This document shows positions 1-56,326 of a stretch of DNA of 56,326 bases, one piece after another. How positions within the stretch are numbered: the stretch's first letter is position 1; every line of letters begins with the position of its first letter. This stretch comes from a virus: positions 1 to 56,326 of IMG/VR virus record IMGVR_UViG_3300016665_000747; one strand, given 5' to 3'. The notes beneath the pieces are model-generated. The model ran no database searches. It worked only from the letters and a program-made list of their open reading frames with translations, and was not told the DNA's origin. Both the position numbers and the translations under genes were made by a program.

Positions 1-21
1 TTAAAATTATTAAAATTTTAT
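1..21. repeat. Terminal overlap copy 1 (ttaaaattattaaaattttat), identical to 56306-56326
   Basis: Exact 21/21 identity with the last 21 nt of the window, read directly. This is typical of a circular contig written with a k-mer overlap. Confidence 0.9.
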
Positions 22-90
22 TAGATATAGCACAAATGGCCGAAGCCTAAAACTCAAAAAAGCACGAGAAAATCAAGATTAAAAACTAGT

Positions 91-100
91 GTGTTATAAT
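91..100 (+). promoter_or_regulatory. Candidate extended -10 element GTGTTATAAT upstream of terL
   Basis: TGnTATAAT-type sequence about 35 nt upstream of the terL start. The same GTG(T/A)TATAAT string recurs at 16395 and 20316. Confidence 0.35.
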
Positions 101-135
101 TAGTTTAAGTAGGAAATAATACTTAAATAAGTTTG

Positions 136-1716
136 ATGCACCTAGCAGAGATAGAAAATCAAAGAGCAAAGCTTTTCTCTTTAAGAGAACGATACCTAGC
201 TACAGGTTCGCTGTATGAGTTTTTTAAAGCGGCATGGCCTTATATTGAGGGTAACATGCCTTATGTTGATAGCTGGCATATAAGAGCAATAGCCGAGCAT
301 TTAGAAGCGGTTTACGCGCGGCAAATAAAGAAGCTGATTATTAACGTTCCGCCCCGTACCGGCAAGACCAATTTAATATCGGTAGCTTTTCCTGCATGGG
401 TATGGATACATAACCCTAGTGAGAGGTTTTTAACTGTATCCTGCGTTAATTCCTTAAGTCTTGAGCATGCGCAGAAAAACAGAGCTTTACTCGAGAGCAA
501 CTGGTATCAGGATAACTGGGGCTATAGATTCCCTCTTCTAAAAGACCAGAACGTTAAGAGCTTTTTTCAGAATACAAAAACAGGATATAGGCAATCAACG
601 AGCGTAGTATCTAAAACTGTCGGTAAAGGCGGTTCAATCATTATCATTGATGACCCTAACGACCCGGGTGATCTCTCTGAAATCAAACGTGAGAACGTAA
701 TTAACTGGTGGACGCAAAGAATGTCTACCCGTTCAAATAACCCTGCTAATGACTGCCGAATAGTTGTCCAGCAAAGAACACATGAGAACGATTTAACCGG
801 CTATATCAGAAAGAACGATAGCGACAGCGACTGGGTAGAATTAGTGCTACCGCTAGAGTTTGAAGAAAAACGGAAGTGTATTACAGTTCCCCTTGGTATA
901 GACAAGAAAGTTTGGGAAGACCCAAGAAACAAAGAAGGGGAGTTACTCAGCGCCTTACGTTTTGGCGAGAAGCAGGTAAGTGAGTTAAAAAAGTTACTTG
1001 GCTCTTATGGATATGCAGGGCAATGTCAGCAAAGACCTGCTCCAATTGGCGGCGGGATAATCAAGAAAAAATGGTTTAAGCGCTGGACTAGTCCGATTAA
1101 GCCTAAATTTGATTACATATTGCAAAGCTGGGATACGGCAATCTCTGATGAACCGAGCGCTGCATATTCTGCTTGTACCACTTGGGGAATATGGGGTGAG
1201 AAATCCGAGGATGAGTTATTTAGGATGATGCTACTCTCTAGTTGGCGGGATCGTGTAGGCTACCCGGACCTCCGGGCTAGAGCGCAGCGCTTAAGCAATG
1301 ATTATAAGGATGTAGGCGATCATAAAAACCTAGTGCCTGCTCAAAGAACTGTTGATTGTTGTTTAATAGAAGCAAAGGCAACGGGCGATCCGTTAATACG
1401 TGATCTAAGGCTTGGAGGGATTCCTGCTATAGGATACACCCCCAAAGGCGATAAGAATGCAAGAGTACAGAGAGCAGCGCCGTTTATTGAATGCGGGCTT
1501 GTATATTTACCGACTGAAGAGAAAAACCCTGAAAGGCTAACTCCGTTCGCCGAGGAGTTTTTAGAAACAGTGATAACTTTTCCAAACGGGGAGTCAAAAG
1601 ACCTCGTTGACTCGATGACACAGGCAATTTTGTACCTCCGAGACTTTGATGCTTTAACCCACAGGAGCGATGTTAAGGAAGATGAAACCATTACTAAATT
1701 TAGGAAATTATACTAA
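136..1716 (+). CDS. terL: Terminase large subunit
   Basis: The ATG at 136 is preferred over the TTG at 133. Motifs: Walker A-like VPPRTGKT, Walker B IIIIDDPND, QQRTHENDL, and C-terminal nuclease-type acidic motifs (SWDTA, LIEAKATGD, DLVDSM). Confidence 0.85.
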   Translation: MHLAEIENQRAKLFSLRERYLATGSLYEFFKAAWPYIEGNMPYVDSWHIRAIAEHLEAVYARQIKKLIINVPPRTGKTNLISVAFPAWVWIHNPSERFLTVSCVNSLSLEHAQKNRALLESNWYQDNWGYRFPLLKDQNVKSFFQNTKTGYRQSTSVVSKTVGKGGSIIIIDDPNDPGDLSEIKRENVINWWTQRMSTRSNNPANDCRIVVQQRTHENDLTGYIRKNDSDSDWVELVLPLEFEEKRKCITVPLGIDKKVWEDPRNKEGELLSALRFGEKQVSELKKLLGSYGYAGQCQQRPAPIGGGIIKKKWFKRWTSPIKPKFDYILQSWDTAISDEPSAAYSACTTWGIWGEKSEDELFRMMLLSSWRDRVGYPDLRARAQRLSNDYKDVGDHKNLVPAQRTVDCCLIEAKATGDPLIRDLRLGGIPAIGYTPKGDKNARVQRAAPFIECGLVYLPTEEKNPERLTPFAEEFLETVITFPNGESKDLVDSMTQAILYLRDFDALTHRSDVKEDETITKFRKLY

Positions 1717-4013
1717 TGGCAAAAAGAAGAAAGCAAAAAAGAAAGACTAATCGTGATTTGTCAAGGCTAGAGAGTTTAGAGCCTGAATCTATGAATTTGG
1801 CTCAAAGATTACCGATGGAAGAAGATTTGGGCATTTTACCGGAAGAAGTAGAACTTCCCGAAGCAATGGATGATCCTCTTTTATCTTTAGAAGAGCAAAT
1901 TTTATCACGTATGGATAACGAAGCGGAGGAATTAGCCCCAACTGTTACTCCGTTTAATAGTAATTTTGCCGAGGAAATACCGGAAGCAGTCAGGGATAAA
2001 ATAGCTGCTTACCTGGAAGAGGTAACAAAAAAAGATAAGAAAAACCGCGCACCTTGGCTTGATATAATTGAAAAGGCTAAAACTCTACTTGGCTTTAAAA
2101 TTGAGGAAATACAAGACGGAGATAACGGGAGCATTCGTAAATCCAACTCTTCCATCGGAAATAGCGCGCAGGTTAAGACTTACGATACTACTTTCTCAAG
2201 CAGCGTTCTTCGGCTCTGGGCAACGCTTCGCTCCGAATTATTACCCGCTACCGGCCCTGTAGGCTTTAGAACCGATATAAGTGTGGAGGAAGACTACGAA
2301 TTAAAAGGCGAGATGGTCAGGGATATTTTAAACGAGTATTTAACAGTTGAAGATAAAGGCTTTTATCCTGATTACGATCGGTTCTTGTTATATCTGATTC
2401 TTTATGGGTGTGTATTCCGAAAAATCTACTACGACCCTATTACAGGTAAACCTCTGAGCCGTTTTATCATGCCTGAGGATTTTTTATTTGATAATAACTG
2501 CTCAAGTATTACCGAATCAAATCGTCTGACCCATATTAGGTATCTCTCTAAAAGGGAAATCCTCTTTAATATGAATAGCGGGATATTTTCCAAACTTGAC
2601 CTTGATTACCTAGATAACGTGGGCAGCAACGAGGGTGAAGAAGCAGAGGATAAAAATGAGCAAAAACAGGTTGATCCGACCGGTTCCCGTTTTCCTTTTT
2701 ATGAAACACACGAATATCTGGTTTTAAATGATTTTTTTGATGCAAGTAGCACGTCAGAGGATTACAGCATACCTCTACCTTATGTTATTACCAGATGCGG
2801 TGTTACTAATCAGATCGTATCACTTACGCCGAACTGGGATGAAAACGATCCAACCAGAACAAGGATTAACTGCTTTATTCATTATAATTTATTTCCCGGG
2901 TTTGATGTTTTTGGACTAGGTCTTGCTCAAATCCTCGGCTCTAATTCAAAGAGCTTAACTTCCATGCAGCAAATGGCGATTGATGCAGCTATTTTCCAGA
3001 ATTTCCCGGGAGGGATGAAGTCTAAGGGAATAAAGACTACTAATAATGATTTAACAATATTACCCGGGCAATTTGTAACTGTTGAAACCGGTAATTTGTC
3101 GCTGCGGGATTCAATCATGCCTCTTCCTTATAATGGGCCATCACCTGCTTTGCTTGAATATATTAACCGGATAACTACTCAGACACAGGAACTAGCGTCT
3201 GCAACTGAGATGGGGCTTACTGAAAATAATCAGAATACGCCTGTCGGTACTACCATTGCCTTGCTTGAAGTATCAAATCGGATGCAATCGGCAATAATGA
3301 GGACAGTTCATAGTAGTTTTAGTGAGGAGCTACAACTCTTTTATAAAATGTTCAATTTGCCGTCTCTACCTCTAGATAAAGAAAGCTTGAAGGTTATACC
3401 CGTATCTGATCCGTCTGTTGAATCTTCTACGCAGCGAATAATCAAGGCAGAGAGTATTTTAAAGTTAGCTAGCAGCAATCCTGAACTACATAACATGAGA
3501 GAGGTATATTTAAAAGTATATCAAGCACTCGGTATTAACGACATTGATAAGATACTACTCCCCGAAGCGCCGCCGGAGCAGCAGCAGGAGCAACCTATAG
3601 ACCCAGCTTTGCAGGTTCAGATTGCAGATATTGAGCAGCGAAGACTTGAAGTAGAGTCAAAGGAACGGCTAGCTCACTTAAATATTGAAGCTGACGGCTA
3701 TAAGACCCAAATGAACATTGAATTTGATAAGGCAAAACTAGAACAAGAGAAGTATTTAGCCGAGTTAAAAGCAGCTGGGCAACAAGAGCTTGCCGAGCAG
3801 AAATATCAAATTGAAGTTTTAAAACTCGAGTTAAACGAGAAAGAAAAAGTAATAGACACGTTAACCAAGGAACGGGAAATGAGTACTAAGAACGAGCTTG
3901 AATTACTAAAGCTTGAGTACAAGGCAAAAGAAGCTGAGTTAAAGGCACAAGTAGAAGCTCTAAGATCGCAAATTCCACCCGAGCCAACACAAGAGGAGAT
4001 TATTTATGGATAG
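1716..4013 (+). CDS. Portal protein (with long C-terminal coiled-coil extension)
   Basis: 765 aa. It starts in a TAATG overlap with the terL stop. Size and position are typical of a portal, and the last ~170 aa are E/K/Q-rich heptad-like. The call rests on synteny and size only. Confidence 0.65.
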   Translation: MAKRRKQKRKTNRDLSRLESLEPESMNLAQRLPMEEDLGILPEEVELPEAMDDPLLSLEEQILSRMDNEAEELAPTVTPFNSNFAEEIPEAVRDKIAAYLEEVTKKDKKNRAPWLDIIEKAKTLLGFKIEEIQDGDNGSIRKSNSSIGNSAQVKTYDTTFSSSVLRLWATLRSELLPATGPVGFRTDISVEEDYELKGEMVRDILNEYLTVEDKGFYPDYDRFLLYLILYGCVFRKIYYDPITGKPLSRFIMPEDFLFDNNCSSITESNRLTHIRYLSKREILFNMNSGIFSKLDLDYLDNVGSNEGEEAEDKNEQKQVDPTGSRFPFYETHEYLVLNDFFDASSTSEDYSIPLPYVITRCGVTNQIVSLTPNWDENDPTRTRINCFIHYNLFPGFDVFGLGLAQILGSNSKSLTSMQQMAIDAAIFQNFPGGMKSKGIKTTNNDLTILPGQFVTVETGNLSLRDSIMPLPYNGPSPALLEYINRITTQTQELASATEMGLTENNQNTPVGTTIALLEVSNRMQSAIMRTVHSSFSEELQLFYKMFNLPSLPLDKESLKVIPVSDPSVESSTQRIIKAESILKLASSNPELHNMREVYLKVYQALGINDIDKILLPEAPPEQQQEQPIDPALQVQIADIEQRRLEVESKERLAHLNIEADGYKTQMNIEFDKAKLEQEKYLAELKAAGQQELAEQKYQIEVLKLELNEKEKVIDTLTKEREMSTKNELELLKLEYKAKEAELKAQVEALRSQIPPEPTQEEIIYG

Positions 4014-4179: not shown

Positions 4180-4391
4180 ACCGAAATAATATCTATAGCC
4201 GAGGCTCTTTTACTGCCAAGGTTATAGGAAATATTGAAGCTGAAATTGATAGATACAGGAGCATTTTAAGTAATCCGGCCAGCATCTCTACGCTAGAGGA
4301 TTACAAGTATCATGTCGGGGTAATTGCCGGTCTTGATATAGCTCTTGAACTGTTTAACAGACACATAATAGAGGTAAATAACAATGAATAA
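4176..4391 (+). CDS. Hypothetical protein (head module)
   Basis: 71-aa ORF in the co-directional, tightly packed late operon. No motif recognised. Confidence 0.5.
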   Translation: MNRNNIYSRGSFTAKVIGNIEAEIDRYRSILSNPASISTLEDYKYHVGVIAGLDIALELFNRHIIEVNNNE

Positions 4392-4812
4392 CTGTGAAAT
4401 AACCAATTACAAACCAGAAGATTTTAAAACCAAAGGAATTGATCTCCAAAGCTTTAATAAGGAAACAATGATAGAGAGATTCAAGGAAGTATCGGTTACT
4501 GGAATCAATGTATTAATTCTTATTTACAAACCGCCTGTTGAGGAGGTCACAAGAGGAGGGGTTATCATCCCGCAAACTGCCGTAAAAGACGACCTGGAAT
4601 ACAACTCAATGGTCGGCATGGTATTAAAGCTTGGTCCGGATAGCTATAAGGGTGATCAGTTCCCGAGCGGCCCTTATGTAAAAGAGGGAGACTGGGTCAT
4701 ATTCCCGCGTGGTTCATCATTGCAGTCAAAATATGAGGGTGAGCCGATAATTATGGTAGAGGATTTTAAAATCAAACTACTAGTCGATAATCCATCAAAA
4801 GTATCAAGGTAA
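4384..4812 (+). CDS. GroES-like co-chaperonin domain protein
   Basis: The C-terminal ~95 aa follow the GroES pattern: ...EVTRGGVIIPQTAVKD...MVGMVLKLGP...VKEGDWVIFPRGSS...EGEPIIMVEDFKIKLLV (compare GGIVL...GEVLAVG...VKVGDIVIF...EEVLIMSESDILAIV). Confidence 0.55.
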   Translation: MNNCEITNYKPEDFKTKGIDLQSFNKETMIERFKEVSVTGINVLILIYKPPVEEVTRGGVIIPQTAVKDDLEYNSMVGMVLKLGPDSYKGDQFPSGPYVKEGDWVIFPRGSSLQSKYEGEPIIMVEDFKIKLLVDNPSKVSR

Positions 4813-4816: not shown

Positions 4817-5797
4817 ATGTTTAAAATAGATATTGAAAATACAAGCGACTTAAACGCTGCTATTCCACCTTTAAAAGAGCTGGATGAAAACAAGGATGAC
4901 AAGCTTGAGGACAAAGAAGCCCAAAAGAATGTCGAAGCAACTGAGCAGGAATCGGAAAATATAGAGGATAAGAATGAAAAAATTGATATTTCTGGGGATG
5001 TTAGTGAAAAAGACGAAAAGTCTACTAAAACTTCTGTCTCTGAAAAAGACAGAGAAAAATACTGGTCTAAATTAAAAAAAGAACGTGAAGAAAAAGCGAA
5101 GCTTACCGAGCAGCTAGATCAGTTACAGCAGGAAAAACTGCAAATGGAGCAGTTGCTCCGCCAAGCTATAAATACTGGTTCTACCCATTATAAGAACAAT
5201 GTTGCCGGCGAACTTGAAATGGCTCAGGCAAGGTTGCAGTTGGCACTGGAAAGCGGTGATGCTGCCGGGGTTAGCAGAGCTACAGCTGAGATTTCAAAGG
5301 CAACACATGCTTTGAATGAAGCCTCAAGAATAGCAAGTTTTCCCAAAGAAGAATATTCCGAAGAACATCTTAATCAGGTTCGGGCTAGAGAATATGAGGA
5401 TAGATTATATAGCTGGCTTGAAAGCAATCCCGAAGTAGATAAAAACGCCCCTGAGTATGATGAGAAGCTAGCTACATCAGTATTATCCTTTATTAAAAGA
5501 CTAGATCGCAAATACCAGACTACCAATAAGGAACATCTAATAGGTTCTGGTAGTTATTACAGCATGATAGATGAGTATATCGACAATTTAAAAGCACAGG
5601 ATACGACTACAACTCCTGCCAAACATTTTGGGGCAGTTCGCAGCCGTGCTCCCATGGAAGGGGTTCCTGATCCAAAAACAAGGGAATTAAGCGATAGAGA
5701 GAAAAAGGCGGCGCTTGCCTTTGGTATGTCTTATGAGAGATATCGTGAGCTTCTAGATAAACATAATAAGGAAATGAGGTCAAAAAATGGCAATTAA
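4817..5797 (+). CDS. Putative scaffolding protein
   Basis: 326 aa with an acidic, low-complexity N-terminus and long predicted coiled coil (EREEKAKLTEQLDQLQQEKLQMEQLL). It lies between portal and capsid genes. Confidence 0.5.
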   Translation: MFKIDIENTSDLNAAIPPLKELDENKDDKLEDKEAQKNVEATEQESENIEDKNEKIDISGDVSEKDEKSTKTSVSEKDREKYWSKLKKEREEKAKLTEQLDQLQQEKLQMEQLLRQAINTGSTHYKNNVAGELEMAQARLQLALESGDAAGVSRATAEISKATHALNEASRIASFPKEEYSEEHLNQVRAREYEDRLYSWLESNPEVDKNAPEYDEKLATSVLSFIKRLDRKYQTTNKEHLIGSGSYYSMIDEYIDNLKAQDTTTTPAKHFGAVRSRAPMEGVPDPKTRELSDREKKAALAFGMSYERYRELLDKHNKEMRSKNGN

Positions 5798-8069: not shown

Positions 8070-8900
8070 ATGTCTAATGGCATTAACGCCCCTTATGGAT
8101 TGCAAATAGTTCAATCTCAAATAGGAAACGGCGGAACACAAAAACTAGGTCAATACTTTATTTATGCATCTGATGACGGCTTAACTACTTATAATGGTAA
8201 TATTTTTCAAGGGGACTTAGTAAGAATGAAACCACCTGCTGATACGATTCCCAATTCTATTGCAGGAGGAACAGGTACTGTAGTTGCAGGATATACCCCT
8301 GTTGCAAACAATCCAGCTACTCCAGTTACAGGAATACCTGTAGGAATTTTTATAGGTTGTGAATTTACGGATGCCTTAACTGGTTATCGAGTAAGTTCTG
8401 ATTACTGGCCGGCAAGCAGACAAGTTAAAAAAGGAACAAAAATCATTGCTTGGGTTAATGATGACCCAGAAGTAGTATTTAAAGTTCAGATTTCTACTTC
8501 AACAAATAATGCTATAGCTGCTGCACAAGGTGGTGTTTATGCACCTTCAGTTTTTCAATCAGCTTTTATTGGTCAAAATGCTTTCTTACAAGTAGGTGGA
8601 ACTCCTTTTAATGCTCCAGTTGGTGCAGTTCCTACAAATAATCCAGCAACAGGTAATACTACAACTGGACAATCTGCTTATTACTTAGATGGTTCAACTA
8701 TTACAATAACTGCATCAGGAGGCGATGGTAATATAACTAGGGAAATTAAAATTCTTGGTTTAGTTCCAGAATTACAGACGAATGCCAATCCAACGAACTT
8801 AATACAAGGTGTTAGTATGCCTTTTATTGATGTTCTATGTAAATTCAATGTACATATTCATGGTTCTACAGGAACTCCAGGAGCAAAATTAACTGCATAA
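8070..8900 (+). CDS. Hypothetical abundant virion protein (candidate decoration or second capsid protein)
   Basis: 276 aa with a strong RBS (aaaagaggaaataattATG). It lies immediately upstream of the capsid gene, after a long leader with a promoter-like element. G/T/N/A/P-rich, beta-type composition. Confidence 0.4.
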   Translation: MSNGINAPYGLQIVQSQIGNGGTQKLGQYFIYASDDGLTTYNGNIFQGDLVRMKPPADTIPNSIAGGTGTVVAGYTPVANNPATPVTGIPVGIFIGCEFTDALTGYRVSSDYWPASRQVKKGTKIIAWVNDDPEVVFKVQISTSTNNAIAAAQGGVYAPSVFQSAFIGQNAFLQVGGTPFNAPVGAVPTNNPATGNTTTGQSAYYLDGSTITITASGGDGNITREIKILGLVPELQTNANPTNLIQGVSMPFIDVLCKFNVHIHGSTGTPGAKLTA

Positions 8901-9043: not shown

Positions 9044-9973
9044 ATGTCTATTATAACAACCGGTGATATTCCAAGTCTGCTTTGGCCGGGTCTTTATGAG
9101 GTAAAATCTCAATATGATCGGTTTAAGGGGGAATATACCAAAATCTATGAACAATCTAACTCTGTCAAACATACCGAAAGGATGGTTGATATTAGAGGAA
9201 CAGGTTACGCTCTTGAGAAAACCCAAGGTGCTCCTATTAAAATGGATAGCATGGCTGAGCGGTTTATTTATGAATTTGTCCACCGAGAATTTGCCCTCGG
9301 TTTTCAGATCACCAATATTGCTATGGAAGATGATCTTTATGCCGATCAGTTCTTTAATGGGACTAAATCGCTTACTACTTCTTATGAACAAACCAGAGAA
9401 GTAGTAGCCATGAACCCTTTTAACCAGGCGTTTAACGTAGCAGCAGTGCAAAGTAACGGACAACCTCTTTGCTCCGGTTCTCAACCTTATGATGGGGGTG
9501 TTTATTCTAACCGCGTTGGGGCATATAACGGCGTTAATGTTAATGTCGACTTTAGTGAAGCAGGCGTTGAACAGGCAGTAATACTTGCCGGTAAAATGAA
9601 AGATCAGGCAGGGTTATTAATTAATGCTCAAATTGAGAGATTGTTACTTCCACAAGACTTAATGTTCTCGGGTTGCAGGTTACTTGAGTCCGTATTTAGA
9701 ACAGGAACGGCTAATAACGATATAAATGCACTTTATAACATGAAGGCTATTCCGCAAGGTTATGAAGTAAGCCATTTCCTAACAAATCCTAGCAACTGGT
9801 TTGGATTAACTAATGTTAAGGGAACTCGCAAGCATTTTGTAAGACGTCCGCTGAAAGTAAACGTTACAACCGATCCTGTAACTGAAACCATGTCAGTGCT
9901 TGCATCAGGCCGTTATTCTTTTGGCATGTTTACTCCTCTTGGGGTAATTGGCGCTCAAGGGTCAACAGCTTAA
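9044..9973 (+). CDS. Major capsid protein (HK97-fold type)
   Basis: 309 aa at the end of the head module, followed by a strong terminator. The pattern ...REFALGFQITNIAMEDDLY... resembles gpT/HK97-like coat proteins. Confidence 0.65.
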   Translation: MSIITTGDIPSLLWPGLYEVKSQYDRFKGEYTKIYEQSNSVKHTERMVDIRGTGYALEKTQGAPIKMDSMAERFIYEFVHREFALGFQITNIAMEDDLYADQFFNGTKSLTTSYEQTREVVAMNPFNQAFNVAAVQSNGQPLCSGSQPYDGGVYSNRVGAYNGVNVNVDFSEAGVEQAVILAGKMKDQAGLLINAQIERLLLPQDLMFSGCRLLESVFRTGTANNDINALYNMKAIPQGYEVSHFLTNPSNWFGLTNVKGTRKHFVRRPLKVNVTTDPVTETMSVLASGRYSFGMFTPLGVIGAQGSTA

Positions 9974-10050: not shown

Positions 10051-10734
10051 ATGTCCCAATTTCGTGAATATAAATGGCCAGTTCTTGTGGGAAATGGAAT
10101 ATCACTCACGCAAGCACCAGTGGCAAATACTCCGCTACTGTTAAATGGTTCTTATGTAAATAAAACTACAGGAACAGTTAGATGTGTTGATGATTTTGGT
10201 ATTGTCCCAAGAATTACGCTTAGTTCAAGTGCTAATCTTTCTGCTATTAATTTTCTTATTACCGGTTATCAGAATGGGATTTTTATTAGTGAAACCTTAG
10301 CTGGGCCAAATTTAAATACAGTTACAAGCATCAACTGCTTTGATAGCATAGATAAAATAATTCCAAATACTACTAGCCCAAATACTCTTTTAGTAGGTTT
10401 TTCTAATACAGGTTATTATCCGATTATTCCTTTGAATATACTAAGATCAGGCGCAGGCACTTTTTCCTTAAACGCAATAGCAGCAGCTGAGAATCCTCTT
10501 ACTTATCAAGTTTTCATTTCATTGAAGGATTATATAGGAATAGGTAAATACGATGATTTGAGTACTGCTCCAAGTGTTGGTAGTACTGGTACCGGTAATT
10601 TTGCAAGCCTTGTTAGTAGTCGCACAGCGTCGTTCTTTGCTCAGTATAATAATATAGGAGCTAACTTACTTTTTAAAATTGGCACAACTTCTACTGGGAC
10701 TAATCCTGTTAGGGTTCAATTTTTACAAGTTTAA
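10051..10734 (+). CDS. Hypothetical virion protein
   Basis: 227-aa ORF with an RBS (aggaaattattATG), first gene of the tail block. Confidence 0.55.
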   Translation: MSQFREYKWPVLVGNGISLTQAPVANTPLLLNGSYVNKTTGTVRCVDDFGIVPRITLSSSANLSAINFLITGYQNGIFISETLAGPNLNTVTSINCFDSIDKIIPNTTSPNTLLVGFSNTGYYPIIPLNILRSGAGTFSLNAIAAAENPLTYQVFISLKDYIGIGKYDDLSTAPSVGSTGTGNFASLVSSRTASFFAQYNNIGANLLFKIGTTSTGTNPVRVQFLQV

Positions 10735-10753: not shown

Positions 10754-11800
10754 ATGCCGGCAACTAGTGGAAGTTATAGCTTTAGCAACATAAAAGCAGA
10801 GCTGATTATCAGAAAGGCTTATGAGTTAATCGGTATGCCCCTTAGTATGGTAACTGCCGAGCAATATAATTCAGCACTTAATATTATCAATTTTATTTTA
10901 AGCGATTGGACTAACTCCAATGTCAACTTATGGACATTAAAATTAAATCCTGTTTTTTTAACTCCGGGGCAAGCATCCTATCCTTTACCGAGCAACATTA
11001 CTAAAGTATTTCAAGTATTCCTAAGAAGTAACACAAGACAGAATTTTGGCGGTACTCCGAACAATGGAGGATATGGAGGAGTAGCGGCTTATGCGTTTGA
11101 TGGTAATCCTAATACTGCTTGTACTCAAGACCAGGTAAACGGCTTGATAGGTTATGCTTATTCTACTCCCCAAGTGATTAAAATTCTAGGCGTGCAATCA
11201 AATGTAGATAGGGAGTATAGCTTAACATTTTCTGGCCAGAGTAGCGATTATCAAACGATTTATTATGCTAAGACTATTCCTAAAACCTTATATAAAAAAG
11301 GTATTACGCAGTGGTTTCTGCTGGAAGATAATTTAGCTTTGTGTCCCTATTATCAGATACAGGAAACAGCAGGAGCTACCCTTGATATCTCGGAAGTCTA
11401 TTTTAACAACCAGTTACAGGATACTACCATGAGCGAGGTATCCAGATATGAATATCTATCTTATCCCAATAAATCGCAAATCGGTAGACCTACCATTTAC
11501 TACGTTGATTACCAGAGGACTCCATCTCTCTATATATGGCAGACTGCTTCTCTTGCGTATAATTTAATAATGTATAGCGGTCAAAGCAGTATAGAAACTC
11601 TAGAGAATTACACGCAAGGCATTGATATTCCGGCATATTTTTATACTCCTTTAATATATGGGTTAGCAAGCATGCTAGCAGCACAATACGCCCCTGAAAA
11701 AGAAGAAGGTTTAAAAATGAGATATCAGGAAACGCTGAGTCCGGCAGTAATTAATAATACGACAGAAGTCCCGCTTAAGCTGGAGGTATATAGTGACTAG
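10754..11800 (+). CDS. Candidate head-tail adaptor (T7 gp11-like N-terminal pattern)
   Basis: The N-terminus ...KAELIIRKAYELIGMPLSMVTAEQYNSALNIINFILSDWTNSNVNLW resembles the T7 gp11 N-terminal pattern (AVNDILASIGEPPVSTL...ARRILNKINRQIQSRGW). This is a pattern-level match only. Confidence 0.35.
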   Translation: MPATSGSYSFSNIKAELIIRKAYELIGMPLSMVTAEQYNSALNIINFILSDWTNSNVNLWTLKLNPVFLTPGQASYPLPSNITKVFQVFLRSNTRQNFGGTPNNGGYGGVAAYAFDGNPNTACTQDQVNGLIGYAYSTPQVIKILGVQSNVDREYSLTFSGQSSDYQTIYYAKTIPKTLYKKGITQWFLLEDNLALCPYYQIQETAGATLDISEVYFNNQLQDTTMSEVSRYEYLSYPNKSQIGRPTIYYVDYQRTPSLYIWQTASLAYNLIMYSGQSSIETLENYTQGIDIPAYFYTPLIYGLASMLAAQYAPEKEEGLKMRYQETLSPAVINNTTEVPLKLEVYSD

Positions 11801-12237: not shown

Positions 12238-13323
12238 ATGACTAATAATTTTAATCCGGGTTTTGATAGGGAAAAGGCAGCTTTTATAGCACTAGCTAAT
12301 AGAGGTGAGGGACTTACTCCAATTAATTATTTATATGCAAAAGAAGCTAGTTTTGAAAGTATTTTGTCTCCTAATATTACCGGCGGTACTGCTGAGCTTT
12401 ATACAATATATGCAAACGGCATTAACTCTGCCAGTATCACTAATACTGAAGATATTATTACCAGTAGGCTAAAATGGAATAATCCATTTAATGATTATTA
12501 CGTTGGTTTTACTGCTCCTGAAAAACTGACTCAAAACACGATATGGAGATTACCGCTAGGAGATGGAAAGGACAAGCAGGTATTAGCTACTGACGGTAGC
12601 GGTGGATTATCTTTTATTGATGTTGTACAAGGTGGGGGAGCTCCAAAAGATGCTACTTTCATCATACAAACTCAAAATGATAATTTACCTAATGCACAAG
12701 TTCTGGAAGAGCTTGGAACGGGCATAACTAAAATTGTAGTTGGCGGAGCTTTTGCTATTGCAATTAGCGGTCAGGATTATGCAACTAGCGAGCAGTTAGA
12801 GGAAATAAGAGATCAATGCCAAGAATATGCTAATAGCGCAAAGAGTTCCGCTGATTCCGCAAAGAATTCTGCTGACTATGCAAAAGAACGGGCGCAGGAA
12901 GCAGAAAATGCCGCCGATAATGCAAGAGCTTCTGCAATTGCTGCAGAAACTTTTTCAACAGATGCAAGAGCTTCTGCTCTTTCGGCCGCTGCCTCTTCTG
13001 CCTCTGCTAGTGGTTTTGCCGGAGCTGCCGGAGCATCTGCTGCCGCTGCTGCTATTTCTGCGACTGCTGCATCTGCATCTGCTGCTTTAGCCGCCGATAG
13101 TGCCGTAGAAGCAAAAGAATATCTAGATACTCTCTTGAGTACTGAGTTACAACTTCAAGGGGATATAACTGGTAGCGGATTATTAAATGACTCAATTATT
13201 ACTACTTTTAAACCTAATCCGGTATTTACCGGTAATGGATCAATGACTATGCCTTCAGGTAATAACACTCAAAGACCAGTTACCTTAATTCCAGGAATGA
13301 TCAGGTTTAACACTTCACTATGA
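12238..13323 (+). CDS. Tail fibre protein (Ala/Ser-rich coiled segment)
   Basis: Contains a long SA(K/D)SA... and A/S-rich repeat region. The C-terminus ...PSGNNTQRPVTLIPGMIRFNTSL carries the widespread phage fibre motif (T.QRP....G.(I/L)R(F/Y)NT). Confidence 0.65.
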   Translation: MTNNFNPGFDREKAAFIALANRGEGLTPINYLYAKEASFESILSPNITGGTAELYTIYANGINSASITNTEDIITSRLKWNNPFNDYYVGFTAPEKLTQNTIWRLPLGDGKDKQVLATDGSGGLSFIDVVQGGGAPKDATFIIQTQNDNLPNAQVLEELGTGITKIVVGGAFAIAISGQDYATSEQLEEIRDQCQEYANSAKSSADSAKNSADYAKERAQEAENAADNARASAIAAETFSTDARASALSAAASSASASGFAGAAGASAAAAAISATAASASAALAADSAVEAKEYLDTLLSTELQLQGDITGSGLLNDSIITTFKPNPVFTGNGSMTMPSGNNTQRPVTLIPGMIRFNTSL

Positions 13324-13336
13324 TTTTATGCTAAAA

Positions 13337-13356
13337 TTAACTTAACTTAACTTAAC
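13337..13356. repeat. Microsatellite (TTAAC)x4
   Basis: Four perfect tandem pentamers between the two fibre genes, 25 nt upstream of the 13381 start. Confidence 0.9.
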
Positions 13357-13380
13357 AATTGAATAAATAAGAGATTTAAT

Positions 13381-14097
13381 ATGACAGATACACTAATTGA
13401 CAAAAATCTTCGAGGACCTTTACCTTCTCCAGTTGGTAAACCAGAAATCACTGATGGAACAAACTGGTTTACACTTGCTACTGAAAACTGGGTTATTAAT
13501 CGAGAAGGACTAGCCCCTGCTCTTGCAGCTAGTACCCTTAATTTAAACGCTGCTTATGCTAACGGCACTAATGGAGTTGGTGCTACCTTAACTAATTCAG
13601 GAACACAAGTAACCTTTTCTATTGATGGTACAACTCCTGCTGTAGGTAGTCGTATTCTAATTAAAAATCAAACAAGTACTTTTCAAAATGGAATATATGC
13701 GGTAACTAATGCAGGCTCAGCTTCTACAAATTGGGTGTTAACAAGAGCAACTGACTTTGATACCGCCTCCCAAATGACTCAAGGAAAAACTATCGATGTT
13801 ATTACTGGTACTGCAAATGCTGCCTCAGGATGGATGTTAACATCTGCCTCTGTTACTGCCGTTGGTACTAGTGCTGTTACTTTTACAAGACTTTCAAAAG
13901 GAACGGGAATAGATAATATTTTAGGAGTTAATAATGAAATAATTGTTACCATTAGTAATGGAGTTGCAACAGTTAGAATAGATAATAATCCTGTAATGCC
14001 TGGTAATGCAAGTATAACAATTCCAGTCGGTACTACCGCTCAAAGACCACAAACACCAAATGTTGGTGCGCTTAGATTTAACACTAGCCTTACTTAA
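13381..14097 (+). CDS. Tail fibre protein
   Basis: The C-terminus IPVGTTAQRPQTPNVGALRFNTSLT repeats the fibre motif seen at the end of 12238-13323. T/A/G/N-rich. Confidence 0.6.
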   Translation: MTDTLIDKNLRGPLPSPVGKPEITDGTNWFTLATENWVINREGLAPALAASTLNLNAAYANGTNGVGATLTNSGTQVTFSIDGTTPAVGSRILIKNQTSTFQNGIYAVTNAGSASTNWVLTRATDFDTASQMTQGKTIDVITGTANAASGWMLTSASVTAVGTSAVTFTRLSKGTGIDNILGVNNEIIVTISNGVATVRIDNNPVMPGNASITIPVGTTAQRPQTPNVGALRFNTSLT

Positions 14098-14212
14098 ACT
14101 TAAAGGAATTCTTTGCGGGAAAGGACAATTTTTCTCGCAAAGGGAGTCTCTAGCTCTTTGTTTATAACAGCTACAGAGAGTAAATTATAAATGACTAAAA
14201 AAGAGATACACA

Positions 14213-16351: not shown

Positions 16352-16394
16352 AAATAATTCCGTTTATACGATTTTTAAGAGTTATAAATACTTT

Positions 16395-16418: not shown

Positions 16419-16424
16419 AAATAT

Positions 16425-17714: not shown

Positions 17715-17717
17715 TTT

Positions 17718-40858: not shown

Positions 40859-41016
40859 CTCCACAAAGACAGGAAGATATCAAAACGATAGCATCTCGCA
40901 TACGTAGGACTTTAAAGGGAACGGGTGGTTTAACTTATACAAACTTTACTGATGATTTAGATACTTTGTTGAACTTAATCTTAGAAGAGGGAAAGGATGA
41001 GTCAGTTATTAATTAA
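40855..41016 (+). CDS. Small ORF (53 aa), not in the ORF track
   Basis: MTPQRQEDIKTIASRIRRTLKGTGGLTYTNFTDDLDTLLNLILEEGKDESVIN. It overlaps the start of the ParB/MTase gene by 20 nt. Confidence 0.3.
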   Translation: MTPQRQEDIKTIASRIRRTLKGTGGLTYTNFTDDLDTLLNLILEEGKDESVIN

Positions 41017-42115
41017 TCCAGAATTTCAAAATCTTATTCCAACTTTAAACCTAGAGGAATTAAGTTCGTTAGAAGCTAGCCTTAAGCATGAAGGTTGCCG
41101 TGATCCGCTGGTGGTATGGCACAATACTATAATAGATGGACACCATAGATATGCTATTTGTACTAAGCACGGCATAAGCTTCAACATAATAGAAAAGACG
41201 GAGCTAGAAACCGAGCTGGACGTAAAGCTATGGATGATCAACAACCAGTTTAGCAGAAGGAATTTGCCTACTGAAACTAGGCTAGCACTTGCTTATAGGT
41301 TTAAGGAGTTTGAGGCTCAGAAAGCAAAAGAGCGACAAGGGACAAGAAATGATCTTACCATAGAAGATACCAACATTAGGTTACCAGTAACCTTAAGTAA
41401 CAATCCAGAAAATAACAAAACATTAGAAGTGATAGCTCAAAAAGCTGGTGTTTGCTATAGCACTGCTTTCCAATACGACGCTATTCAACGTAAAGGAACT
41501 GAGGAACAAAAAGCCGAAGTTGCAGAAGGTAAGGCAAGTATTAAGAAAGTCTATACTCAAATACAGAAAGCCGAGCGTTTAGAGAAGAATAAGGCAGCAG
41601 AGTGGCCAAAGGGTAAGTACCGAGTTATATACGTAGACCCACCATGGCAATACGGGGATGAGAGATCGGGAGGTAACCACGGCGGGGCAGTAGACCATTA
41701 TAATACGATGGGCATAAATGAACTAAAAAATATGCCCATAGCTTCTTTAGCTGAAGATAATGCTGTTTTATTTCTATGGGCTACCGCTCCCCTGCTACCC
41801 GAGGCACTAGAGCTAATAAATGCTTGGGGCTTCAAGTATAAGACTAATTTTATATGGGATAAAGTTAAACATAATATGGGGCATTACAATTCGGTTCGCC
41901 ATGAATTGCTATTAATAGCTACTAAGGGAAGCTGCACGCCTGATAATGTTCAATTATTTGACTCTGTACAAAGTATTGAAAGAACCGATCGCCATTCCGA
42001 GAAACCCGAAGAGTTTAGAAAGATAATTGAAACGCTATACACTTTCGGTAACAAGCTTGAAATGTTTGCTCGGAAGTCGGTAGAAGGTTGGGAGGTGTTT
42101 GGTAATGAACTTTGA
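40997..42115 (+). CDS. ParB-like nuclease domain fused to MT-A70-family DNA adenine methyltransferase
   Basis: N-terminal ParB-type motif DPLVVWHNTIIDGHHRY. The C-terminus has YRVIYVDPPWQY (the DPPW catalytic motif) and LFLWAT. Confidence 0.85.
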   Translation: MSQLLINPEFQNLIPTLNLEELSSLEASLKHEGCRDPLVVWHNTIIDGHHRYAICTKHGISFNIIEKTELETELDVKLWMINNQFSRRNLPTETRLALAYRFKEFEAQKAKERQGTRNDLTIEDTNIRLPVTLSNNPENNKTLEVIAQKAGVCYSTAFQYDAIQRKGTEEQKAEVAEGKASIKKVYTQIQKAERLEKNKAAEWPKGKYRVIYVDPPWQYGDERSGGNHGGAVDHYNTMGINELKNMPIASLAEDNAVLFLWATAPLLPEALELINAWGFKYKTNFIWDKVKHNMGHYNSVRHELLLIATKGSCTPDNVQLFDSVQSIERTDRHSEKPEEFRKIIETLYTFGNKLEMFARKSVEGWEVFGNEL

Positions 42116-53824: not shown

Positions 53825-54109
53825 TCAACGTGATTTTTTGTTAACGGCATCTTTTAGTTTTTGCCCTACTTTAAACTTTGGTTGGTTGTAGGCAGCTATT
53901 TTTAACGCCTCACCAGTTCTTGGATTACGACCTGACCTTGCTTCAATTTTACTTACAGAGAAACTACCAAAGCCAACGAGGGATATTTCCTTGCCCTCTC
54001 CCAAAGCATCAATTACCGAAGAAGTAAATATATCAATAGCTTTCTCTGCTTCTATTTTTGTGCATTTGTGTTGGTCTGCGATATGAGTGATAAATTCTGA
54101 CTTGTTCAT
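53825..54109 (-). CDS. hup: HU-family DNA-binding protein
   Basis: MNKSEFITHIA...LVGFGSFSVSKIEARSGRNPRTGEALKIAAYNQPKFKVGQKLKDAV is the canonical HU/IHF fold signature. Confidence 0.9.
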   Translation of the reverse strand: MNKSEFITHIADQHKCTKIEAEKAIDIFTSSVIDALGEGKEISLVGFGSFSVSKIEARSGRNPRTGEALKIAAYNQPKFKVGQKLKDAVNKKSR

Positions 54110-54123
54110 ATATTACCTTTAAA

Positions 54124-55023
54124 TTATAATTTGTTTTTAAGTTTTGCAATTTCTTCCAAGCTAAAACCGGTTACTGAAGAAATTAGCTTATCATCCAGAT
54201 TCTGTTTTAGCATATTAAGAGCTGTTTTTTCAATACCCTTAACTTCACCCTCGGCTCTACCTTTGGCTTCACCCTCGGCTCTACCTCTAGCTTCAGCAGA
54301 TACTATATAATCACGACCTTTCATGGAATCCATGACGTAGCTATCGTAAACCTCTCTTTCCTGATTGGTCATTTTTAATATACTTAAACGCTGTGCTACT
54401 TTCTGCATATAAGGAGACTTAAAATCCTCTTTTACCTCAGAGTGTTTCATTAAATATAACCACTCGTCGATTTCCTCTTTTATTACATCATCAAATAAAG
54501 GAATTGAAACAATAAAATATTCAGGGAAGATATTGTGAGCATCAAACGTATGCATCCCCCTATCTATTAAGTGAACGTCTATCGGATGCTTATGGTCTAT
54601 TTCATGAAAAATTACCTTACCATGATGTAGGGGAGCTTTGGTATTTTTAAAAGGGAAGTATAGCAGATTGATATGGAACACTTTTTTGATTTGTAAGTAA
54701 TCCTGATTTGCCCCGAGATTATCAACGATTAGCCTTGAGGTATTAAATACTGCTTTGTTTAGAAAAAGATCGGTATAAGCACGATCAATTTCAACTATAT
54801 AGTTGTTACCTTGTTCATCTTCAACAATAACGTCTGCTATACTTCTTTTTAAATATCTGCTTTCCTTATTACTTTCGCTGTCAAGCAAGGATTTAATCTT
54901 AATGGGTTTATACCCTTCTGATGTAAGAAGAGCAGAGATAAACCCTTCGACTATTTCATAATCACCTTTATCTTTTAGAAGATACTTGATAGCGTAGTCA
55001 AAGCTGATTAGTGTTTTTTCCAT
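54124..55023 (-). CDS. Rpn/YhgA-like PD-(D/E)XK recombination-promoting nuclease (putative transposase family)
   Basis: N-terminal ISFDYAIKYLL, a nuclease core ADVIVEDEQGNNYIVEID, and a C-terminal tandem GRAEGEAKGRAEGEVKG repeat followed by an HTH-like tail, as seen in this family. Confidence 0.7.
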   Translation of the reverse strand: MEKTLISFDYAIKYLLKDKGDYEIVEGFISALLTSEGYKPIKIKSLLDSESNKESRYLKRSIADVIVEDEQGNNYIVEIDRAYTDLFLNKAVFNTSRLIVDNLGANQDYLQIKKVFHINLLYFPFKNTKAPLHHGKVIFHEIDHKHPIDVHLIDRGMHTFDAHNIFPEYFIVSIPLFDDVIKEEIDEWLYLMKHSEVKEDFKSPYMQKVAQRLSILKMTNQEREVYDSYVMDSMKGRDYIVSAEARGRAEGEAKGRAEGEVKGIEKTALNMLKQNLDDKLISSVTGFSLEEIAKLKNKL

Positions 55024-55035
55024 ATTAGTAATAAT

Positions 55036-56244
55036 TTAAATGGACAACTTAACCCCAACTAGAGCTACAGTACCTTTTACCTTTCTTGCTTTTAAATTAG
55101 GATAAAACTCAGGTTTACCTTTGAGAGTATAAGCATGTATTTCAGCATAAGGTTTAAGCCCCGGTGCAAGTATATGACTTACGGCTAGTTTTACCGAGTT
55201 CACCTTATTTTTAAACTGCTCTGAGGCAAAATACGACAATGAAGTTGTCGTAGCAGTATTATTAGTATAGCTAATACCTGCGTTGTAATAATGAGACTTA
55301 TTACCTGCTTTATGTAATTCCTTAGAAGTCAAGCTTTTACCAAAAGAGCCGTAACAGGCATTATACTTAAAATCACCTATTTTTAATTCTCCGCCGATAT
55401 TATAAGCTTTTAAATCACTTAATTTATACTCCCCCAGTGGATTCTTATCGTCTTTATTGGCAAATTTCTTAATTTTACCAACAGATTTGCCGTATTCACC
55501 GGTTAGCGCCAGTTTTAATTCTGCTTCTTCAGTTAGTTTTTGCTCAAATACCATTCCGCCGGTTAGCGCATCCTTAACAGATTTATCAATTTCAAATCTG
55601 TCTAGTGTTGTTTCTTCAATTGCATATTTTGTTATGCCGTCTGATTTTACGGATGGCTTGTCTATGCCTGTATTAGCAGAATCAGGGGTGTAGGATATAC
55701 CAAACTGCAATTTGCTAGAATCGGTTAAATCAAACTTAGGAGTATAATAATTTATTGTTCTTGGAGGCTCGCTGCTATAAGTTGCTGAATCTAAGCCGGC
55801 AGTTATAGAATCACCAAGGATAGTTTCCTCGGAAGTTAAAAATGATGGGCTAGCCTTTGTTCCTTGTTTTAAATACTCTATGCCTGTTTTTATATAGTTT
55901 GTAGGTATAGCTCCATCATTGATGGTCATGTTTCTTGCAACTGGGATTGGTGAGCCTGCTTCAATTTTCCCGAACTCATGTTCTAAGAATACATGAGAAC
56001 CGTTATAATCATTGTTTACTTTTCTTTTTGTTGTAGGAACTAAGACAATTTTAGCGCCGTAAGTAATATCATTTGCCGTATTTGATATGTTAGCAAAAAA
56101 AGCTGAGTTATTAAAAAAAGCCATGCCTTTTTTATTAGCCGATATATTCTTCTCTGTTCCCTTTAGTTTACTTTGATTGCTAAATCCGCTTTCAAAGACG
56201 GCAAAAGCACCAAGTTTTACATTTAAATCCGATACTACAGGCAA
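55036..56244 (-). CDS. Porin-like outer-membrane beta-barrel protein (start unresolved)
   Basis: Alternating hydrophobic beta-strand pattern throughout, with Y/G/S/T/N-rich loops. An in-frame signal-peptide-like stretch (KKVSLLLGVLLASSTALA) lies upstream of the track's TTG start but has no start codon of its own. Confidence 0.5.
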   Translation of the reverse strand: MPVVSDLNVKLGAFAVFESGFSNQSKLKGTEKNISANKKGMAFFNNSAFFANISNTANDITYGAKIVLVPTTKRKVNNDYNGSHVFLEHEFGKIEAGSPIPVARNMTINDGAIPTNYIKTGIEYLKQGTKASPSFLTSEETILGDSITAGLDSATYSSEPPRTINYYTPKFDLTDSSKLQFGISYTPDSANTGIDKPSVKSDGITKYAIEETTLDRFEIDKSVKDALTGGMVFEQKLTEEAELKLALTGEYGKSVGKIKKFANKDDKNPLGEYKLSDLKAYNIGGELKIGDFKYNACYGSFGKSLTSKELHKAGNKSHYYNAGISYTNNTATTTSLSYFASEQFKNKVNSVKLAVSHILAPGLKPYAEIHAYTLKGKPEFYPNLKARKVKGTVALVGVKLSI

Positions 56245-56305
56245 CGGATTACTAGCTAATGCCGTGCTACTTGCAAGTAAAACTCCAAGTAATAGTGATA
56301 CTTTT

Positions 56306-56326
56306 TTAAAATTATTAAAATTTTAT
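56306..56326. repeat. Terminal overlap copy 2
   Basis: Identical to nt 1-21. Confidence 0.9.

Follow-up and report, generated by a model that had tools for sequence, protein, structure and literature searches.

The window analysed here, the whole 56,326-nt IMG/VR record IMGVR_UViG_3300016665_000747, is probably the complete genome of a temperate podovirus-type phage that is kept as a low-copy circular plasmid of Candidatus (Ca.) Megaira polyxenophila. This bacterium, also spelled Megaera, is an obligate intracellular Rickettsiaceae symbiont of protists, among them ciliates, and of algae. We defined 71 genes, which cover 91% of the sequence. Their predicted products include the features by which a phage-plasmid sensu Pfeifer et al. 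2021 (PMC7969092) can be recognized in sequence: a virion set, a replication initiator and a partition system, with no integrase. On this reading, this copy would reside extrachromosomally in cells and the element would produce infectious particles.

Distribution and host of the element

DNA-level matches to the window were confined to plasmids of Ca. Megaira polyxenophila (80–93% identity over the shared parts). Plasmid pPCS109 (AP017967.1) covered 65% of the virion half of the window at 88.8% DNA identity, and 'plasmid unnamed2' of Ca. Megaera polyxenophila NDG2 (CP113869.1), a closed 64.4-kb circle in a complete Megaira genome, covered 44% at 91.6% DNA identity with synteny all round. The top match in the genome collection was a Rickettsiales metagenome-assembled genome (MAG). 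This similarity, together with the Rickettsiaceae-specific initiator described below, confirmed Megaira as the predicted host at the genus level. A preliminary description, made by a model from the letters of the sequence alone, had proposed an intracellular alphaproteobacterial host, in agreement with these matches. It had also pointed to 'extreme AT-richness', which did not hold, as the GC content of 35.7% (local range 29–44%) is ordinary for Rickettsiaceae. Scans of the window for tRNA genes and Rfam families gave no match.

The same element (94–100% identity) was found in at least three further samples, and the exact ParA sequence of the window was also present on three further short contigs. 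The 90%-identity cluster of its capsid protein has 342 members. In IMG/VR we found 66 related loci, several of them 50–60 kb long, with TerL identities mostly of 73–95%.

A complete virion gene set under purifying selection

The 71 genes were scanned with Pfam and/or PHROGs (g62–g71 with Pfam only and g35–g37 with PHROGs only; g48 had no Pfam hit), and selected proteins were compared with PDB and modelled with AlphaFold2. The following packaging, head and tail genes were assigned.

46698–47306 (+), g59: TerS (phrog_309, E = 9e-16), conserved in 16 relatives
133–1716 (+), g01: TerL (phrog_38, E = 1.5e-72)
1716–4013 (+), g02: portal (phrog_1216, E = 4.9e-23; a 58% identical orthologue matches Pfam SU10_portal)
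4384–4812 (+), g04: GroES-like (Cpn10) head-assembly co-chaperonin (Pfam Cpn10, E = 4e-8; phrog_3188)
4817–5797 (+), g05: scaffold-like acidic coiled-coil protein (position and composition; no family match)
8070–8900 (+), g09: conserved protein directly upstream of the capsid gene (homologues likewise placed)
9044–9973 (+), g10: major capsid protein, HK97 fold (homologue families and AlphaFold2/Foldseek)
10754–11800 (+), g12: second adaptor-like protein or head-tail connector (weak SU10_adaptor match, E = 0.0024, below cutoff)
12238–14722 (+), g14–g16: tail-fibre genes (tail-fibre and virion-structural PHROG matches)
14791–16351 (+), g17 and g18: tail-block genes, g18 encoding a patatin-like phospholipase (Pfam Patatin, E = 1.3e-25)
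17046–17714 (+), g20: SU10-type tail adaptor (PF24175 SU10_adaptor, 68.5 bits against a cutoff of 27; PDB 7z47_A, the SU10 adaptor, E = 0.0018)
17718–19406 (+), g21: tail nozzle (PDB 9nwi_Y, E = 5.6e-7; 8zkk 'nozzle gp16', E = 1.3e-4; phrog_3287)
21337–28210 (−), g28–g31: four large putative internal virion or ejection-type proteins (387–724 aa)

The predicted podovirus-type virion set is complete, with TerS, TerL, portal, GroES-like protein, scaffold, HK97-fold capsid, adaptor, nozzle, fibres and ejection-type proteins. The set named in the preliminary description (TerL, portal, scaffold-like protein, HK97-fold capsid, adaptor and fibres) was confirmed by PHROG, Pfam, PDB and AlphaFold2 comparisons.

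We compared the window with the 66 IMG/VR loci, the MAG contig and the Megaira plasmids by the ratio of nonsynonymous to synonymous substitution rates (dN/dS), at dS values of about 0.3–0.7. Median dN/dS was 0.105 for TerL (53 comparisons), 0.118 for the portal (49), 0.070 for the GroES-like protein (46), 0.057 for the capsid (20) and 0.21 for the nozzle (1). No stop codons were found in TerL, portal, GroES or capsid across tens of comparisons. These four genes are under strong purifying selection (dN/dS 0.06–0.12) and are not decaying remnants, a possibility that the preliminary description had raised.

The g10 protein itself had no Pfam or PHROG match. Its homologues carry PF25209 (Phage_capsid_4) and PF10124 (Mu gpT), and its AlphaFold2 model, with a predicted local distance difference test score (pLDDT) of 83, matched the HK97, D3 and T5 capsids with a Foldseek probability of 1.0. 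PDB sequence searches with the portal, g09, g10, g28 and g30 gave nothing usable. Gene order around the capsid is shared with relatives: the position of g04 is matched in pelagiphage HTVC023P and marine relatives, and g05, a predicted scaffold by position and composition, keeps its place between GroES and capsid in relatives. Homologues of g09, possibly a capsid-associated or decoration protein, are equally placed in HTVC023P and in Azospirillum, Caedibacter and MAG loci. About 9.7 kb, taken up by the partition and cargo region, separates TerL from the TerS gene upstream of it; in HTVC023P, TerS is likewise apart from TerL.

Predicted tail architecture, putative ejection block and patatin gene

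No sheath, tube or baseplate family was matched in the Pfam/PHROG scans of the window genes. An adaptor and a nozzle, without sheath, tube or true tape measure, indicate that the virion would have a short-tailed (podovirus) architecture. The nozzle g21 is 29% identical over 98% of its length to a virion protein of Caulobacter phage GB2A. Podovirus-like morphogenesis, as proposed earlier, is thus supported by the g20 adaptor, the g21 nozzle, the HK97 fold of g10 and the HTVC023P-type kin described below. The accompanying statement that the element has no sheath, tube or tape-measure-sized gene stood for sheath and tube; it did not extend to the four large genes g28–g31 on the opposite strand, whose products appear to be of the ejection type.

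The C-terminus of g31 is 47% identical to that of GB2A gp065c, the post-nozzle gene of that phage, and phage DSL-LC04 shares an N-terminal motif of g31 in its own post-nozzle gene; the GB2A and DSL-LC04 genes are each annotated as 'tape measure'. In a contig of Caedibacter varicaedens, the order g20-g21-g22-g31 is colinear on a single strand. Because g31 corresponds to the post-nozzle genes and the Caedibacter order is colinear, we read g31–g28 as putative internal or ejection proteins as in short-tailed phages. In the Megaira elements the g28–g31 block is inverted relative to the ancestral order and is split from the nozzle by toxin-antitoxin, RuvC and cold-shock genes. Long inverted repeats that would link the serine recombinase of the element to this inversion were looked for, and none were found. 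A tblastn search of g28 against phages gave no match.

By PHROG matches, g07, g14 and g15 are of the fibre type. The product of g19 is probably fibre-like, judged by its repetitive sequence and its place in the fibre block; it had no family match. Relatives carry two SU10_adaptor-type genes. The segment g14–g19, comprising fibres and patatin, is an insertion between g13 and g20, and the fibre block is absent in the Caedibacter relative. A patatin gene occupies the equivalent place in CP113869.1, pPCS109, the MAG contig and a relative with a 61% identical capsid. Between elements, g18 is only about 35% identical, compared with 70–86% for the flanking genes, which suggests cassette replacement or fast divergence. 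The patatin-like phospholipase is a candidate for a membrane-lysis or exit function.

Predicted plasmid maintenance functions

The genes with predicted roles in plasmid maintenance are as follows.

32716–33747 (+), g40: DnaA-like plasmid initiator homologue, 343 aa (protein comparison)
32143–33747 (divergent pair): g39, a MarR/TrmB-type regulator on the − strand (TrmB, E = 2.6e-10), divergent from g40
47689–48695 (+), g61 and g62: partition cassette of ParA and a 134-aa partner (Pfam CbiA/ParA; phrog_164; KGGVGKS Walker A)
19685–20216 (−), g23/g24: RelE(YafQ)-type toxin and DinJ-type antitoxin (phrog_7251, E = 2.8e-31; phrog_2737, E = 8e-22)
34284–34574 (−), g42: VapD/Cas2-like protein (PADLOC Cas2, E = 1e-9; 92% DNA match to an annotated VapD gene)
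35464–36075 (−), g44: small serine recombinase of the resolvase/invertase type, 203 aa (Pfam Resolvase, E = 2e-42; phrog_125 'DNA invertase', E = 1.5e-63)

The g40 protein is 33% identical (E = 6e-24) to a 'DnaA-like domain protein' of CP113870.1, a plasmid of the same strain as CP113869.1. A tblastn search of g40 against PLSDB matched only plasmids of Ca. Megaira (11 records) and Rickettsia (7 records); the Rickettsia matches include R. felis pRF, R. asiatica and R. bellii, and the genes matched bear the names DnaA-like or DnaA N-terminal domain protein. With a profile built for the g40/g54 family (g54 is a paralogue described below), 249 cluster representatives were found, and Pfam DnaA_N was present in 13 of the 50 distant ones scanned. 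An internal segment at residues 315–436 of the CP113870.1 protein is missing from g40 and is presumably the DnaA_N part. By these comparisons, g40 is predicted to function as a plasmid-type replication initiator, of a family restricted to Megaira and Rickettsia plasmids. In Rickettsia, parA and dnaA-like genes suffice for autonomous shuttle vectors, and compatibility appears to be governed by differing parA genes (PMC3244465).

ParA is present in 15 related loci. In most relatives the cassette differs (21–30% identity) between the conserved flanks g60 and g63, and in one relative TerL is only 81% identical to that of the window, yet ParA is 97% identical (loci compared: L089, L101, L116, L134, L144 and L148). 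This pattern of cassette exchange suggests, at the sequence level, selection for plasmid compatibility. No centromere for g61/g62 was identified in the window.

The Pfam/PHROG scans of the 71 genes matched no tyrosine or large serine recombinase, as the preliminary description had stated; the only serine recombinase found was the 203-aa resolvase/invertase g44. The maintenance genes listed there, namely ParA with a small partner, a small serine resolvase, a YafQ/DinJ-type pair, two initiator-like paralogues and DnaB, were likewise recovered by Pfam and PHROGs. The plasmid lifestyle that it had proposed is supported by the plasmid initiator family of g40, by ParA, by the toxin-antitoxin pair, by the resolvase and by the closed, syntenic circle of CP113869.1.

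The circle and its join

The two ends of the window share one short sequence, which had been taken as evidence for a circle of about 56.3 kb.

1–21: terminal 21-mer, identical to 56306–56326, marking the circular join

This was the sole end-overlap length found in the window. When the end was joined to the start, the resulting sequence was colinear across the join with the closed circular plasmid CP113869.1 and with the Rickettsiales MAG contig RXKF01000009.1. An independent European Nucleotide Archive (ENA) assembly (ERZ27292652:k141_561486), 99.6–100% identical to the window, runs through the join, and in a 58.9-kb IMG/VR contig TerL is divided between both contig ends. Because three independent sequences (CP113869.1, RXKF01000009.1 and the ERZ27292652 contig) span the join, the window ends are truly adjacent in the genome.

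The circle was therefore upheld as to the adjacency of its ends, and the exact join was not: it is 21 nt short of the relatives. These 21 additional nucleotides, CATAAGATTTCTCTCCTGTTT, are present at the join in the ERZ27292652 contig and in all eight of the eight relatives compared (window 56302–56326/1–21; 11481–11526 of locus L158). Read on the minus strand, CATAAGATTTCTCTCCTGTTT supplies the ATG of the porin gene and an AGGAGA ribosome-binding site; in a circle closed from the window sequence alone, no start codon precedes the signal peptide of the porin frame. As written, the unique length is 56,305 bp, and addition of the 21 nt gives 56,326, exactly the window length. Because the porin is otherwise strongly conserved, we consider 56,326 bp the more likely normal length of the circle. 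The missing 21 nt may be a small assembly or circularization artefact, or may reflect a real 21-bp deletion between TTT microhomologies, in which case an assembly bubble would explain the contig break.

A putative second replication module and recombination genes

The window encodes a second initiator-like protein together with a helicase, and a group of recombination genes.

42938–44218 (+), g54: initiator paralogue of g40, 426 aa (27% identical to the g40 N-terminal domain)
44234–45562 (+), g55: DnaB-type replicative helicase, directly after g54 (Pfam DnaB_C, E = 3.7e-64; phrog_19, E = 6.5e-70)
43403–43529, inside g54: origin-like array of three dyad iterons CCGAARAAATWCGRC with 22-nt spacing
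40997–42115 (+), g51: ParB-N domain fused to an MT-A70 adenine methyltransferase (domain scans)
28397–30433 (−), g32 RecT, g33 helix-turn-helix regulator and g34 YqaJ exonuclease (phrog_561, E = 4e-54; phrog_434, E = 2e-81; Pfam RecT and YqaJ)
20502–20963 (+), g26: RuvC-like Holliday junction resolvase (phrog_159, E = 1.1e-23)

The iterons are followed by CGCGCGCG, an AT-rich stretch and then CAGATCTTTCAGATCTTTG, which contains two GATC sites (43512–43529). None of 100 shuffles reached four matches. Relatives whose g54 is 52–60% identical (10413–10583 of loci L167 and L169) carry an array of 3.5 copies with the same 22-nt period at the equivalent place; its dyad sequence, AGTCAnnnnTGACT, is different, and the downstream GATC pair CAGATCTTTCAGATCTTTG is unchanged. 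Because the architecture is conserved while the repeat sequence varies among relatives, the array looks as an iteron origin inside its own initiator gene should look. In the AlphaFold2 model of g54 (mean pLDDT 57), a disordered linker, encoded by the repeat-bearing DNA, lies between a winged-helix-like N-terminal domain and a C-terminal domain that is helical.

Phage lambda O carries an internal origin, and P22 gp18-gp12 is a comparable initiator/helicase arrangement; the g54 iterons with g55 resemble both. P1 has separate plasmid and lytic origins, which the two replication modules of the window recall. By this analogy, one module may serve plasmid maintenance and the other lytic replication. 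Plasmid pPCS148 was considered as a carrier of the g54–DnaB replicon and dropped, as its annotation shows a ParB-N/methylase neighbourhood only.

RecT, YqaJ and RuvC make up what is, by their predicted functions, a phage-type recombination set. As side observations, the element with a GATC pair near its iterons also encodes an MT-A70 adenine methylase, and a promoter-like direct repeat of 61 nt (16364–16424 and 20285–20345; 77% identical), containing TGTTATAAT and a ribosome-binding site, stands ahead of g19 and again about 160 nt upstream of the RuvC gene. The open reading frame g25, which overlaps the second copy, is probably spurious.

Relatives and known systems

Close relatives of the element were already public as GenBank 'plasmids' and IMG/VR viral contigs; CP113869.1 and pPCS109 were deposited or annotated simply as plasmids. 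Both share with the window an order that runs all round: porin, TerL, portal, GroES, capsid, adaptor, fibres, patatin, nozzle, toxin-antitoxin and cold-shock protein, then the four large proteins, RecT/YqaJ, the g40 homologue, methylase, ParA, GTPases and PD-(D/E)XK nuclease. CP113869.1 has no g54–DnaB module and carries another ParA allele (21% identical) and another toxin-antitoxin set. It also carries group II introns and IS256, whereas the window has no insertion sequence (IS) or group II intron and its virion genes are full length; its porin, unlike these genes, lacks a start codon at the join as assembled. In pPCS109 the element lies within a 109-kb plasmid. The TerL of CP113870.1 is 92% identical (16738–18321 of locus L164) and stands beside PolB, primase-helicase, a DnaA-like gene and giant SecA-like-domain genes.

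In the searchable literature (subscription journals outside scope), we found no paper reading Megaira plasmids as phage-plasmids and no described phage of Megaira, Trichorickettsia or other Rickettsiaceae; among tailed Rickettsiales phages, the one well described there is phage WO, which is integrated in Wolbachia.

Among isolated phages, the closest in capsid and nozzle are the pelagiphages HTVC023P and HTVC027P, Roseobacter phages CRP-901 and CRP-902, Caulobacter phages RW and GB2A, and Planktothrix phage Pag-Yong1 with phages like it. In HTVC023P-, CRP-901- and Riverwalk-type phages the virion module (TerL, SU10-type portal, GroES, capsid, adaptor, nozzle and post-nozzle protein) is homologous to and syntenic with that of the window, with capsid identities at the amino-acid level of 27–36% to these phages and their kin and of 32–35% in the comparison with HTVC023P-type podoviruses. 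HTVC023P-type phages form a podovirus group that is defined by the PolA of its members (PMC9599517). They, CRP-901/902 and the Riverwalk-type phages (RW and GB2A) are lytic and have their own DNA polymerase, primase and helicase; the window instead has a plasmid initiator, ParA, toxin-antitoxin, resolvase and host-like cargo. Because no family-A DNA polymerase or primase was matched in the Pfam/PHROG scans, and likewise no other DNA polymerase, the element, judged by its gene content, shares the HTVC023P-type virion module and is not a member of that group.

The likeness to P1, N15 and SSU5 that had been suggested for the window is one of lifestyle. With P1, N15, SSU5 and the F116 group it has a common logic of virion set, plasmid replication and partition, addiction, multimer resolution and no integrase. 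No sequence relationship was detected: a megablast search of window positions 1–25000, the virion half, against the phage collection gave no match, and capsid tblastn did not match the P1, N15 and SSU5 groups. The window differs from these classical phage-plasmids in its short-tailed morphotype, its obligate intracellular host and its Rickettsiaceae DnaA-like/ParA backbone. In their survey, Pfeifer et al. 2021 (PMC7969092) found short-tailed phage-plasmids to be rare. With the dnaA-like and parA plasmids of Rickettsia and Megaira (pRAM18, pRF), the window has in common the initiator family of g40, ParA and typical cargo, namely PD-(D/E)XK nucleases, patatin, tetratricopeptide repeat (TPR) proteins, toxin-antitoxin and HU; those plasmids lack the virion module.

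Phage WO (Symbioviridae) is temperate and carries a patatin-like phospholipase beside its tail genes, proposed as a lytic cassette, with no canonical endolysin; it integrates by a recombinase and has connector/baseplate and tail modules (PMC9203015). It also carries a eukaryotic association module. Neither a WO-type integrating recombinase nor its connector/baseplate, tail or eukaryotic association modules were found in Pfam/PHROG scans of the window, and no virion genes homologous to those of WO were seen. The patatin parallel between the two is suggestive, being an analogy of position alone.

The virion module also occurs outside Megaira. A contig of the Paramecium killer symbiont Caedibacter varicaedens (BBVC01000024.1, 222–12761; L014) carries the same module, with a 38% identical capsid and a 27% identical nozzle, and could be the phage-like element long associated with R-body-producing Caedibacter. 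Plasmid pA26_3 of Azospirillum sp. A26 (NZ_CP170471.1, 62.6 kb; L026) encodes homologues of TerL, portal, GroES, capsid (33%) and adaptor, and is possibly another phage-plasmid with this particle type, in a free-living alphaproteobacterium. The relative with the 61% identical capsid (L002; GCA_040384205.1, JAWVGZ010000648.1, 56.6 kb) encodes an 862-aa TerL with intein and LAGLIDADG domains (1–308). Another relative lies on a 58.4-kb contig of GCA_013558295.1, an assembly whose contig numbering exceeds 800,000, which suggests symbiont or phage DNA within a eukaryote genome assembly. The same capsid lineage is also present on large contigs (L028, L054, L055 and L019), including a 1.1-Mb Dehalococcoidia chromosome and 137–466-kb Alphaproteobacteria/Pseudomonas MAG contigs, and may also include integrated prophages.

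Alternative explanations

Several observations weigh against the window being an active phage maintained as a plasmid. Particles of this element have not been seen. No endolysin, holin, repressor or anti-repressor was recognized in the Pfam/PHROG scans, and g28–g30 had no homologue of known function in family scans or in PDB searches of g28 and g30. Structural support for g54 as an initiator is weak, as its low pLDDT of 57 is accompanied by Foldseek matches to winged-helix proteins, including plasmid Rep, that were non-significant (E > 0.01). The nozzle gene of pPCS109 is cut by a transposase and an IS-type 'integrase' (21581–25714 of locus L155), and CP113870.1 retains only TerL of the virion genes. 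The absence of the 21 nt at the window join would disable the porin. Virion DNA that is terminally redundant or concatemeric also assembles as a circle, so that a circular assembly alone does not identify a plasmid; GB2A, a relative, has 2.9-kb terminal repeats.

The decay and mosaicism in pPCS109 and CP113870.1 would fit a domesticated or defective Megaira plasmid that has captured a podovirus module, is inherited vertically and forms non-infectious particles or none. The group II introns and IS elements of CP113869.1, the unrecognized lysis and repressor genes, and the inverted ejection block would also fit such a plasmid. We nevertheless regard domestication as unlikely: the window has full-length genes for TerS, TerL, portal, capsid, adaptor, nozzle and fibres, purifying selection is strong over tens of divergent copies from many samples, and the spread of the 66 IMG/VR loci, at 73–95% TerL identity, fits horizontal transmission.

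The element could also be a virulent or chronically replicating Megaira phage, whose circle would reflect terminal redundancy or replication intermediates and whose ParA and toxin-antitoxin genes would serve other functions. The isolated members of the virion-module lineage (HTVC023P, CRP-901 and Riverwalk-type phages) are indeed lytic, long terminal repeats such as those of GB2A would assemble as a circle, and IMG/VR classes the relatives as viral contigs. However, those lytic phages have a set of DNA polymerase, primase and helicase, in place of which the element carries a Rickettsiaceae plasmid initiator, ParA, toxin-antitoxin and resolvase. In the genomes of cultured symbionts, the syntenic relatives exist as stable closed plasmids, whose IS and intron insertions imply long residence, and the ParA exchange suggests selection for plasmid compatibility (PMC3244465). 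Taken together, these points make a purely virulent or chronic phage quite improbable.

An integrative prophage in its excised circular form, using the small serine recombinase or an unrecognized one, is hardly credible: the catalytic domain of g44 also matches the 'integrase' family phrog_95 (E = 8e-33) and other bacteria carry the capsid lineage on large chromosomal contigs (L028, L054 and L055), but the 203-aa g44 is without the large C-terminal domain that serine integrases have, the window scans gave no tyrosine recombinase, no contig of the element or its close relatives continues into chromosomal DNA, and the relatives are deposited as separate circular replicons.

Proposed life cycle and implications

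As a temperate phage kept as a plasmid, the element would alternate between two states. In the plasmid state, g40 and the host replisome would replicate the circle, ParA/g62 would segregate it, the resolvase would resolve multimers, and RelE-DinJ, perhaps with VapD, would kill element-free cells. In the lytic state, g54 would bind the 22-nt iterons inside its own gene and load the DnaB helicase g55, and the resulting concatemers would be processed by RecT/YqaJ and RuvC. The assignment of g40 and g54 to the plasmid and lytic modes is a guess. TerS/TerL would then fill an HK97-fold capsid built with the scaffold and the GroES-like co-chaperonin, and the tail would consist of portal, SU10-type adaptor, nozzle and fibres. 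The g31–g28 proteins would be ejected, carrying the DNA across the envelope. The patatin-like phospholipase of the tail block may stand in for an endolysin, aiding passage of bacterial and/or host membranes.

A bolder version of this scheme, which we put forward only tentatively, is that of an active, horizontally spread podovirus on a Rickettsia-type dnaA-like/parA plasmid, in which the patatin phospholipase replaces the endolysin and allows both bacterial and eukaryotic membranes to be crossed. Such membrane crossing would be convergent with phage WO. If this were true, the element would be a natural transducing vehicle and a ready vector chassis for Megaira and its Rickettsia relatives, and a route of gene flow (porin, transporters and effectors) among protist symbionts.

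An intact phage-plasmid on the initiator/ParA backbone used in Rickettsia shuttle vectors could explain the movement of cargo between intracellular symbionts of protists and algae, and suggests a delivery and vector system for bacteria in which genetic manipulation is difficult. The element would add a short-tailed group to the phage-plasmids, among which this morphotype is rare, and shows, recombined onto a plasmid, a virion module whose other known carriers are abundant lytic phages of the sea. Several Megaira 'plasmids' in GenBank deserve re-annotation.

Cargo genes

The main cargo genes lie between the partition cassette and the join.

49179–52229 (+), g64 GTPase and g65 TPR protein, each preceded by a 76-nt sequence
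53825–56244 (−), g69 HU, g70 PD-(D/E)XK (Rpn-like) nuclease and g71 porin (Pfam matches)

Domain scans confirmed the host-like cargo of the preliminary description: HU, an Rpn-like nuclease with GRAEGE repeats, a porin, an SSF symporter, a TPR protein and a GTPase. The porin g71 (55036–56244) adjoins TerL in 34 related loci and has a dN/dS of 0.087, and HU is present in 16 related loci. Porin and HU are conserved parts of the element and not accidents. A search of ten unassigned proteins against NCBIfam gave no meaningful match.

PADLOC, run on ten cargo proteins, matched only the VapD/Cas2-like protein and the methylase; the GTPase/TPR pair was therefore not called a defence system. The two copies of the 76-nt sequence ahead of g64 and g65 (49179–49254 and 51318–51393) are 99% identical and may be a common promoter or leader. 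Within g65 there is a direct repeat of 185 nt, 87% identical between its copies (51415–51599 and 51802–51986). A Gram-negative porin as stable cargo is unusual in a phage.

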